Assembly (NCBI GenBank): GCA_051294905.1
Contig: CM119371.1
Coordinates: forward strand, 36,334,001-36,398,000
DNA: 64,000 nt
Origin: Botryllus schlosseri
Taxonomy: Eukaryota
Direction: 5' to 3'
Shown here: one piece after another, positions 58,870 to 59,610 of the stretch
Position numbering within the stretch: position 1 is the first letter of the stretch
How the letters are laid out: every line of letters begins with the position of its first letter
Notes under the pieces: model-generated
What the model saw: the letters and a program-made list of their open reading frames with translations, nothing else
Told to the model about the DNA's origin: nothing
The model's database searches: none
Position numbers and translations under genes: made by a program

Positions 58870-59610
58870 ATGAATGCGCTTATAGTATCGATGTGTTATC
58901 GCGGAAAGCCGCACCATGTCGAAAATGAAGGAACGTTACAAGACATTCAGATTATGACAGATATCTTAGTACAGAAATTCAAATTCAAGACTGAAGATAT
59001 CAAAGTGTTGCGTGAAGAGCAAGCCACTCTTGGAAATTTTTCCAGAGAGCTTCAAACAATGGCCGATAGTAGCGCCAAGATAAACTTCATATATTTCGTC
59101 GGTCACGGATTTTCATGTCCAAATAACACAAAAGAAAATGATCCTGAAGCTCGCGATTCCGGATTTGTATTTTATGATAGGCATCTACTCGATGATGATA
59201 TGTGTGAGCTATTAAAAAGCTTTCGTAAAGATACAAAAAACCTACTCATGTTTGCACAGTGTTATAGTGGTAACTCTGCCGATTTGAAATTTCATTTACG
59301 AGAAGACGCTGCTTCGCAAGCACTCAAGCGCAAACGAGACGTAAAATCCAAAACTGTTCTCATAAGTGCAGTTAGTGACGATCAAATCAGTTGGTGTTTT
59401 GAAGACGGTAGTGCTTTTGCAAAGAATTTCAGAACCGTCATACGTGAACACGACGAAATCAAATTCTTCGATCTTATGCGTAAATTGCGACAACTAGATA
59501 AGAGACAAAAGTGTTCGATATCATCAAGCTTCAAATTGGATGAACACGATCATCTCATTCGAAAAAGAAGTTTCAGTTGGATAAAATCTCAATGGAAGAA
59601 ATCGAAATAA
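58870..59610 (+). CDS. Metacaspase-like C14 peptidase (246 aa)
   Basis: ALIVSMCY.G..EGTLQD, IKVL..AT, YFVGHG (His), LLDDDM, AQCYSG..DL (Cys), VLISAVSDDQIS, GSAF; TATATAA ~35 nt upstream. Confidence 0.88.
   Translation: MNALIVSMCYRGKPHHVENEGTLQDIQIMTDILVQKFKFKTEDIKVLREEQATLGNFSRELQTMADSSAKINFIYFVGHGFSCPNNTKENDPEARDSGFVFYDRHLLDDDMCELLKSFRKDTKNLLMFAQCYSGNSADLKFHLREDAASQALKRKRDVKSKTVLISAVSDDQISWCFEDGSAFAKNFRTVIREHDEIKFFDLMRKLRQLDKRQKCSISSSFKLDEHDHLIRKRSFSWIKSQWKKSK

Follow-up and report, generated by a model that had tools for sequence, protein, structure and literature searches.

A C14 protease gene in a Maverick/Polinton element of Botryllus schlosseri

The 64,000-nucleotide stretch of the Botryllus schlosseri genome analyzed here (assembly GCA_051294905.1, contig CM119371.1, positions 36,334,001 to 36,398,000 of the forward strand; hereafter the window, numbered from its first base) contains a plus-strand open reading frame (ORF) for a metacaspase-like protease of family C14, and the carrier of this gene is a Maverick/Polinton (adintovirus-like) element that has recently multiplied in the animal genome. 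The ORF, annotated from Pfam, a PDB sequence search, an AlphaFold2 model, and an alignment of relatives, occupies 58870 to 59610, running from an ATG at 58870 to a TAA at 59608 to 59610 (741 bp), and encodes 246 amino acids (aa), of which residues 4 to 209 match PF00656 (Peptidase_C14) with an E value of 2.4e-13 and 50.8 bits against a cutoff of 21.4. All four motifs that a sequence-only reading of the window had quoted are present: VGHG holds His79 (codon 59104 to 59106); QCYSG, as part of AQCYSG, holds Cys131 (codon 59260 to 59262) and is preceded by Ala129 (codon 59254 to 59256), which replaces an Asp of the substrate pocket; DDDM comprises residues 108 to 111; and SAVSDDQIS comprises residues 166 to 174.

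The C14 protein is a minimal form of its kind. Its single domain consists of p20 followed by p10 with a short linker, and the extras that define the metacaspase types are absent, namely the N-terminal prodomain of type I, the long p20-p10 linker of type II, and the p10-before-p20 order of type III. The lack of a prodomain, already claimed from the sequence, agrees with beta strand 1 of the AlphaFold2 model beginning at residue 2 and with the open frame reaching just 11 codons upstream of the ATG (257 aa in total). A minimal build of 240 to 270 aa is common to many of the relatives found by profile search.

Assignment to the metacaspase branch of family C14

Searched as a single sequence against PDB, the protein gave 11 matches at an E value of ≤1, the strongest six being to plant metacaspases 4 and 9, Geobacter GSU0716, and yeast metacaspase 1; no caspase or paracaspase was among the 11. 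With a profile of the protein and four close relatives, eight matches had E values of 3e-12 to 2e-7, all of them to metacaspases or GSU0716, and the remaining 2 of the 10 listed matches had E values of ≥3. A library-wide profile search returned 4,629 relatives at an E value of ≤0.001 and six at ≤1e-30, and the protein therefore belongs to a small, tight clade within a very large family. In an alignment of 84 sequences, G78, H79, G80, D108, C131, and D138 are invariant (84/84), and in the PDB sequence search His79 and Cys131 align with His86 and Cys139 of AtMC4. Both residues stand in the contexts typical of metacaspases, x-G-H-G and x-C-x-S-G, which in that group lie at the ends of strands 3 and 4.

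The AlphaFold2 model built from the 84-sequence alignment is confident (pLDDT 94, pTM 0.90), and the His and Cys columns are invariant; a predicted fold lacking the dyad, which would have told against the sequence-only reading, was not obtained. In Foldseek, the rows shown above rank 30 were all metacaspases or GSU0716 (TMq 0.66 to 0.76), with lower values for legumain (0.55 to 0.63), caspases (0.56 to 0.59), and MALT1 (0.53 to 0.55). VIA-align gave Z scores of 20.8 to 25.3 over 202 to 224 residues for 16 metacaspase or GSU0716 entries, compared with about 20 for legumain and about 19 for caspases (185 to 189 residues aligned). By these fold matches, the model agrees with the metacaspase version of the caspase/hemoglobinase fold (extended sheet, monomer type). 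The likeness is well illustrated by the type I metacaspases (Yca1, 4f6o/4f6p; Candida glabrata, 7qp0/7qp1; Trypanosoma brucei MCA2 [TbMCA2], 4af8), which have the same fold (Z 20.8 to 25.2, 206 to 219 residues aligned), the same dyad, the same four Ca2+-site Asp columns, and p20 and p10 without a long linker; the Maverick protein differs from them in having no prodomain, in the replacement of two of the three S1 acids and of the Ser before the catalytic His, and in being only 19 to 23% identical.

The diagnostic features of the two animal branches are missing. Where caspases have Q-A-C-x-G, this protein has A-Q-C-Y-S, and Cys176 stands in the column equivalent to Arg341, which together with Arg179 and Gln283 is described as forming the basic S1 pocket of caspases (PMC2064784). 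Paracaspases have Death and Ig domains fused to C14 and a D-x-C-R motif, whereas this is a single-domain protein of 246 aa. MALT1 is placed in the same subfamily, C14B (PMC4357240), and acts with Death-domain signaling, and the Maverick has a separate Death-domain gene; however, MALT1 is a weaker fold match, keeps the acidic pocket, and carries its Death and Ig domains in one polypeptide, and the host has its own such gene. On sequence and modeled fold, we thus assign this compact protease to the metacaspase branch of family C14 (subfamily C14B), in keeping with the earlier metacaspase-type assignment. Because the acidic S1 pocket typical of metacaspases is not intact, we file it, by its residues, as metacaspase derived rather than as a canonical metacaspase.

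We also compared it with the C14 genes of the host, for which the assembly (495 Mb, 219 contigs) was searched. This yielded 70 PF00656 matches; the host open frames that were read include QACRG/QACQG caspases with long N-terminal regions and one MALT1-like paracaspase with a Death domain, in which an N-terminal region and an Ig-like stretch accompany the DVCRK motif. The family profile of 84 sequences scores the query at 212 bits and host C14 proteins at no more than 10.3 bits (maxima of 7.6 for the QACRG caspases and 10.3 for the paracaspase), and host blastp gave E values of ≥1.4. Neither these comparisons nor the PDB sequence and fold searches group the protein with animal caspases or paracaspases, an outcome that would have told against the sequence-only reading.

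Relatives and origin

A quick tree search was made on 153 rows, with rows covering <85% of the profile, exact duplicates, and host caspases, which are not alignable by the profile, excluded. The window protein falls into a clade with P0001 to P0004, P0007, and two 67% copies from the same genome (SH-aLRT 96). The next neighbors, P0009/P0154 and P0015, are metagenome proteins, and the deeper joins carry no starred support; giant-virus and bacterial rows lie elsewhere in the tree. The sequence-only reading had suggested a C14 phylogeny; the present tree, made with host caspases left out, supports the clade itself but not its deeper neighbors.

Relatives were found at 39 metagenome loci with identities of ≤38% in the best segment, at 25 prokaryote loci, mostly with the p20 part alone, and on seven giant-virus metagenome contigs at 25 to 28% identity. 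A first search of viral contigs for relatives returned nothing, and P0015 and P0009 were likewise not found in viral contigs. Look-alikes in the ESM Atlas belong to small caspase-domain clusters of bacteria and phages and serve as leads only. Virus-borne genes of metacaspase type are also described from giant viruses (Imitervirales and Algavirales; PMC10583209), but these are 25 to 28% identical, lie elsewhere in the tree, and belong to algal and protist viruses of hundreds of kilobases rather than to an integrating animal element of about 20 kb.

Genome-wide C14, PF00656, and ATPase searches found no C14 gene of metacaspase type outside Mavericks in this genome, and metacaspases are said to be absent from animals in passages of PMC4357240 and PMC2064784; for these two reasons, we infer a non-animal origin of the C14 gene. 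The horizontal capture previously proposed is upheld insofar as the gene is unlike animal C14 genes and is confined to Mavericks here. Since no donor is named, we put it conditionally, as a gene that would have been captured.

A rebuilt S1 pocket with a conserved dyad and Ca2+ site

The S1 pocket of meta- and paracaspases is described as being formed by three strictly conserved acidic residues, namely an Asp in place of caspase Gln283 (two residues before the catalytic Cys), an Asp or Glu in place of Arg341 (in p10), and a helix-1 Asp aligning with Asp163 of gingipain R (PMC2064784). In TbMCA2, the pocket residues are given as Cys92, Asp95, Ser156, and Asp211, and the Ca2+ site is given as Asp173, Asp189, Asp190, and Asp220 (PMC4357240). 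We counted residues in the corresponding columns of the 84-sequence alignment for 6 clade members versus 76 other relatives.

Position 129 is Asp in all 76 relatives and non-acidic in all six clade members (Ala in five, Ser in one). At position 176, 73 of the 76 relatives have Asp or Glu, whereas the clade has Cys, Val, or Ser throughout (6/6; Cys in the window protein). The Ser preceding the catalytic His (position 77; 75/76 relatives) is Val or Ile in 6/6, and Cys at position 22 (73/76) is Thr in four of the five clade rows covering that part. Trp at position 175 is present in five of six clade members and is not among the five commonest residues listed for the relatives. Asp25 in helix 1 is retained throughout the clade as the sole remaining acid of the three. 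The Ca2+-site columns, which are Asp in 74 to 76 of the 76 relatives, are kept: Asp108, Asp109, and Asp138 in the whole clade and Asp96 in five of six rows (Ser in P0007). The residue after the catalytic Cys is His in 61/76 relatives, whereas clade members have Tyr, His, or Phe there. At position 129, an intermediate state is seen in the nearest outgroups, with Glu in P0009 and Asp in P0015.

Judged from these columns, the S1 pocket is concertedly rebuilt in the whole clade, with the dyad and the Ca2+-site Asp residues conserved. The change from Asp to Ala two residues before the Cys, from which an altered pocket had been proposed, is thereby borne out and proves to be part of a wider change, since the p10 acid and the Ser before the His are also replaced clade-wide. 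From its sequence, the protein is predicted to cut, probably, targets other than those of ordinary metacaspases.

As a separate observation on this site, contigs of two sequencing runs have G for A at window position 59256, the third base of the Ala129 codon, which is a synonymous difference.

Copies, accessory character, and selection

The C14 protein matches 16 places in the genome: 12 are stop-free at 98 to 100% identity, one is 96% identical with a TGA, one comprises residues 1 to 158 only, and two are 67% identical. The Maverick packaging ATPase provides the frame of reference: the 150 loci scored out of 227 candidates fall into four identity classes, with 14 loci at 91 to 100% (one of them partial), 12 at 72 to 74%, 45 at 63 to 68%, and 79 at 48 to 51%. 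All 16 C14 places lie 6 to 11 kb from an ATPase place, accounting for all 14 of the first class plus two of the third, and 134 of the 150 scored ATPase loci have no neighboring C14 match. The two 67% copies represent a syntenic Maverick lineage with the C14 gene in the same position, and the identities between this second lineage and the window element are 66% for C14, 66.5% for the ATPase, 67% for the integrase, 56% for the protease, and 47 to 59% for parts of the polymerase.

In a copy of the 72 to 74% class, the homologue of the ORF at 58486 to 58803 is followed by 132 bp, the homologue of 59696 to 60037, and then the ubiquitin-conjugating enzyme (E2) gene, so that exactly the C14 cassette is missing. 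The cassette was also absent from the sampled copies of the other two ATPase classes, and the same capsid module occurs without the C14 gene in two or more of the copies sampled from other Maverick lineages of this genome. Because lineages exist without exactly this cassette, the C14 gene is an accessory cassette and not a core gene, one that was lost from some lineages or moved between them. Readings of the locus as a host gene or as contamination were rejected: the copies lie on 12 contigs, 11 of which are 22 to 42 Mb long, and each stands beside Maverick genes. The Maverick load of the genome as a whole is very high, with at least 150 ATPase loci, most of them with open frames, which suggests that several Maverick lineages were recently active.

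Between the two lineages, the C14 gene has a pN of 0.21 and a pS of 0.78 to 0.80 (saturated). Among close copies, synonymous versus non-synonymous differences number 2 versus 0 in four copies and 14 versus 5 in the most diverged. This pattern points to clear purifying selection on the C14 gene, acting at the level of element lineages. The Pfam score, the 12 of 16 copies open at 98 to 100%, and the 66% protein identity in spite of saturated synonymous sites together rule out a chance ORF.

The TATA box claimed in the sequence-only reading is found as TATATAA at 58830 to 58836 on the plus strand, 34 nt before the ATG; at the level of a motif, its position is kept in the second lineage. TATATAAG precedes the ATG by 32 nt in one lineage and by 30 nt in the other, and the remaining spacer differs. 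Selection and a kept TATA motif would fit a working gene of the element.

Sequencing reads were also consulted. In a single-cell RNA run (X23, about 3% sampled), 27 reads fell on a 10-kb stretch, at the 3' end of the polymerase, in the ATPase/integrase region, and on the E2 gene, and none of the 27 fell on the C14 gene. A bulk RNA run (X21) gave 0 reads and so carries no weight either way. Run X11 shows even coverage across 29 of 30 bins and may represent DNA. Run X19, the kind of which is a guess and which was picked by way of the C14 gene, has two short contigs lying solely within that gene. The C14 gene is near identical in public runs with five organism labels from 11 studies (0.51 to 0.91 of the sampled words in 18 of 20 runs), among which no RNA run was listed; these may be close relatives, mixed samples, or transfers.

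The carrier element

The Maverick/Polinton copy, delimited by blastn against two other copies and by its inverted repeats, lies on the plus strand from 37151 to the window end at 64000 and on to about 64391, 391 bases past it. It unites an rve integrase and an A32-type ATPase with terminal inverted repeats and many dispersed copies. The repeat arms measure about 280 to 440 bp: the left one (37151 to 37429) has an outer end about 137 bp shorter than in another copy, and the right one begins at 63953 to 64000 and pairs with 37151 to 37429 up to base 64254, outside the window.

From left to right, the element first has a plus-strand ORF of 105 aa with a Death domain (37461 to 37778; PF00531, E value of 1.5e-10), the second-lineage homologue of which is 57% identical, and a minus-strand ORF of 117 aa with an IAP-like BIR domain (39142 to 39495; PF00653, E value of 7e-11). 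A putative polymerase is encoded on the plus strand in two parts, one ended by an insertion (44605 to 46989; motifs read in translation) and a C-terminal one with K-x3-NS-x-FG and DTDS (50662 to 52122). Over both parts, an OTU-like Cys motif, Exo I, Exo II, K-x3-NS-x-FG, and DTDS were read by eye, and such motifs mark the protein-primed B polymerase of adintovirus type (PMC8502044); searches of the polymerase ORF parts against Pfam and PDB sequences gave no match. The A32-like packaging ATPase follows on the plus strand (52151 to 52771; PF04665, E value of 2.3e-10), and after it come the integrase (rve) with a chromodomain (53662 to 54647, plus strand; PF00665, E value of 4.4e-13), in two frames here and as one ORF of 334 aa in another copy, and the capsid-module ORFs (54804 to 58055, plus strand), the last of which is split here (56777 to 57709 plus 57732 to 58055) and is a single ORF of 425 aa elsewhere. 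This 425-aa ORF has a weak double-jelly-roll match (PF21738, E value of 0.03, below the cutoff). A putative adenain/Ulp-like cysteine protease (58052 to 58513, plus strand) has a weak match to ASFV S273R (E value of 0.024) and is kept in the four lineages examined. The C14 gene is adjoined upstream by a conserved 105-aa ORF (58486 to 58803, plus strand) and downstream by a 113-aa ORF (59696 to 60037, plus strand), beyond which lies the E2 gene (60302 to 60577, minus strand; PF00179, E value of 5.2e-24, profile positions 65 to 139). The N-terminal part of E2 is gone from this copy through an insertion at 60644; elsewhere the full form has 158 aa and an E value of 1.3e-46.

Degradation of the window copy shows in a shortened left end, three extra stretches, and interruptions of the polymerase, E2, integrase, and 425-aa capsid-module ORFs. 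The first extra stretch (41711 to 43790) appears in blastn comparison with another copy. CCGACT hexamer arrays with periods of 6 and 42 (41741 to 41899 and 43625 to 43785) flank this 2.1-kb stretch, and a 548-aa ORF (40173 to 41819) has its 3' end at the first array. The second extra stretch (46987 to 50627) is a nested insertion of 3.6 kb bounded by inverted ends of 130 nt, and the third is a 2.2-kb insertion (60644 to 62843); neither of these two is in two other copies. The inverted ends of the 3.6-kb insertion are 92% complementary, and none of its several short ORFs on the minus strand matches Pfam; most probably a DNA transposon has here inserted into the polymerase gene.

The second lineage also has homologues of the Death-domain and BIR genes, and downstream of the C14 gene it shows another BIR-like match. 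Death-domain, BIR/IAP-like, and E2 proteins represent animal-type cell death and signaling domains, here standing beside a protease of non-animal type.

Adintoviruses (Starrett et al. 2021; PMC8502044) are the same kind of element, with an integrase and an ATPase, with an OTU-type PolB and an adenain-like protease that have putative counterparts here, and with IAP homologues as accessory genes, as here. Section 3.2 of that paper names PLA2X, GasderminX, cupiennin, Oncoid, Bcl2, and IAP as accessory genes, and no C14 protease is among those named there.

Other features of the host genome

Among the host C14 genes, one family consists of single open frames of about 580 to 630 aa with two tandem caspase-like domains, the second with DYCRG or DCCRG and the first with a changed Cys context (NYCRF, or GYNR without the Cys). 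Its loci (L032 to L038) are at C7:7.52M, C16:7.51M, C3:22.97M, C3:17.98M, C9:5.56M, C3:13.52M, and C11:26.44M. Most host C14 domains lie in one open frame of 320 to 800 aa, and many caspase genes thus have no intron in the catalytic domain. Several host C14 genes also form local clusters, for example at C8:2.35-2.40M and C4:14.32-14.40M. Left of the Maverick, the host DNA of the window has retroelement ORFs with reverse transcriptase and RNase H (16166 to 18139, minus strand).

Possible function of the C14 protease

We consider it fairly probable that the gene encodes a remodeled metacaspase-type accessory protease of the Maverick that is active and acts on host (or element) proteins. In this view, the protein would be an active and probably Ca2+-regulated endopeptidase with a P1 preference unlike the strict Arg/Lys preference of ordinary metacaspases, and its own TATA promoter would drive its expression wherever the element is active. 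There it may cleave proteins of the host (or of the element) within a cell death and immune signaling toolkit that would comprise the Death-domain, BIR/IAP, and E2 genes of the same element. Because the C14 gene is carried with these genes, the element may handle host cell death, and the most likely role suggested by its sequence and setting is that of a host-protein-cleaving, Ca2+-regulated protease deployed with these genes, which the element carries in both lineages.

Several points weigh against this proposal. The pocket positions were placed by way of the alignment and motif offsets rather than from model coordinates. One acidic pocket residue, Asp25, is still there, and in gingipain R (clan CD, family C25) a single equivalent helix-1 Asp is described as sufficing to bind a P1 Arg beneath a Trp that lids the pocket (PMC4357240), so that basic specificity may survive. 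The Maverick protein, with its helix-1 Asp alone left and the clade-specific Trp175, would resemble that arrangement, an analogy drawn from alignment columns between different families. Only co-carriage ties the C14 gene to the genes for the Death-domain, BIR, and E2 proteins. Finally, as the copy is both young and degraded, an intact ORF of 741 bp says little by itself.

One alternative is that the protein serves as a second virion maturation protease, processing capsid or core precursors of the element alongside the adenain-like protease. The C14 gene closes the morphogenesis module and follows the putative maturation protease by two genes, a position that would suit this role, and for some giant algal viruses a caspase-type cleavage of viral proteins is described as a proposal (PMC10583209). 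However, the sampled copies that keep the capsid module without C14, one of them minus exactly that cassette, argue that the gene is dispensable for particle making, and most scored ATPase loci have no C14 match, all of which makes such a role unlikely. We find it decidedly less credible that the protein is a suicide or defense executioner killing the cell upon infection by another virus or Ca2+ stress, by analogy with what has been proposed for virophage-like integrated elements of protists. The retained Ca2+-site residues, the Death-domain and BIR genes on the same element, and the ties of metacaspases to cell death described for several non-animal groups (PMC4357240) could be read in its favor, but the BIR and E2 genes could equally block death, and Maverick defense in animals is not reported in the literature examined.

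A pseudoprotease, decoy, or scaffold that binds without cutting, like the catalytically dead members of the family, would accord with the heavily altered pocket and with the loss in part of the clade of the His that usually follows the catalytic Cys; yet a decoy would not need the dyad and the two glycines flanking the His, which are invariant in every aligned sequence including all clade members, and we rate this idea a shade lower again than an executioner. Least of all do we credit a derivation, by capture or divergence, from a caspase or paracaspase of the host. The large host C14 repertoire, paracaspase included, could have supplied such a gene, but the host motifs are QACRG/QACQG and DVCRK, the profile and blastp values given above set the host proteins far apart, and caspase and paracaspase folds rank below every metacaspase, and we have rejected this explanation.

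Beyond the accessory protease that we favor, a more far-reaching version is conceivable, if rather doubtful: the captured metacaspase, its pocket rebuilt to give a new specificity, could act with the Death-domain, IAP-like, and E2 proteins of the element as a portable module for rewiring host cell death or NF-kB-type signaling. If this were true, the module would be a paracaspase-like signaling unit split across separate viral genes, and the protease would be the first enzyme of metacaspase lineage to act in animal cells.

Implications

Metacaspases in giant viruses and a caspase in ascoviruses are already known. The ascovirus caspase (Bideshi et al. 2005, as cited in PMC10583209) is likewise a C14 protease of an animal DNA virus, linked to remodeling of the dying cell, but it is described there as a caspase, whereas the Maverick protein is of metacaspase type by sequence and fold. 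No literature joining metacaspases with Polintons, or adintoviruses with caspases, was found in the library searched, and papers mentioning both Polintons and caspases look unrelated from their titles and the openings of their abstracts. As far as the consulted parts of these sources extend, what is new is a remodeled metacaspase-type gene in an animal Maverick.

With this finding, a protease joins the accessory genes known from animal Mavericks and adintoviruses. The clade is also a natural experiment in the retuning of the P1 pocket of clan CD proteases, with two of three acids lost while the dyad and the Ca2+ site stay fixed. Animals are said to lack metacaspases, and yet a gene of metacaspase lineage stands at 16 places in an animal genome, delivered by a virus-like transposon and, as its substitutions indicate, held by selection.

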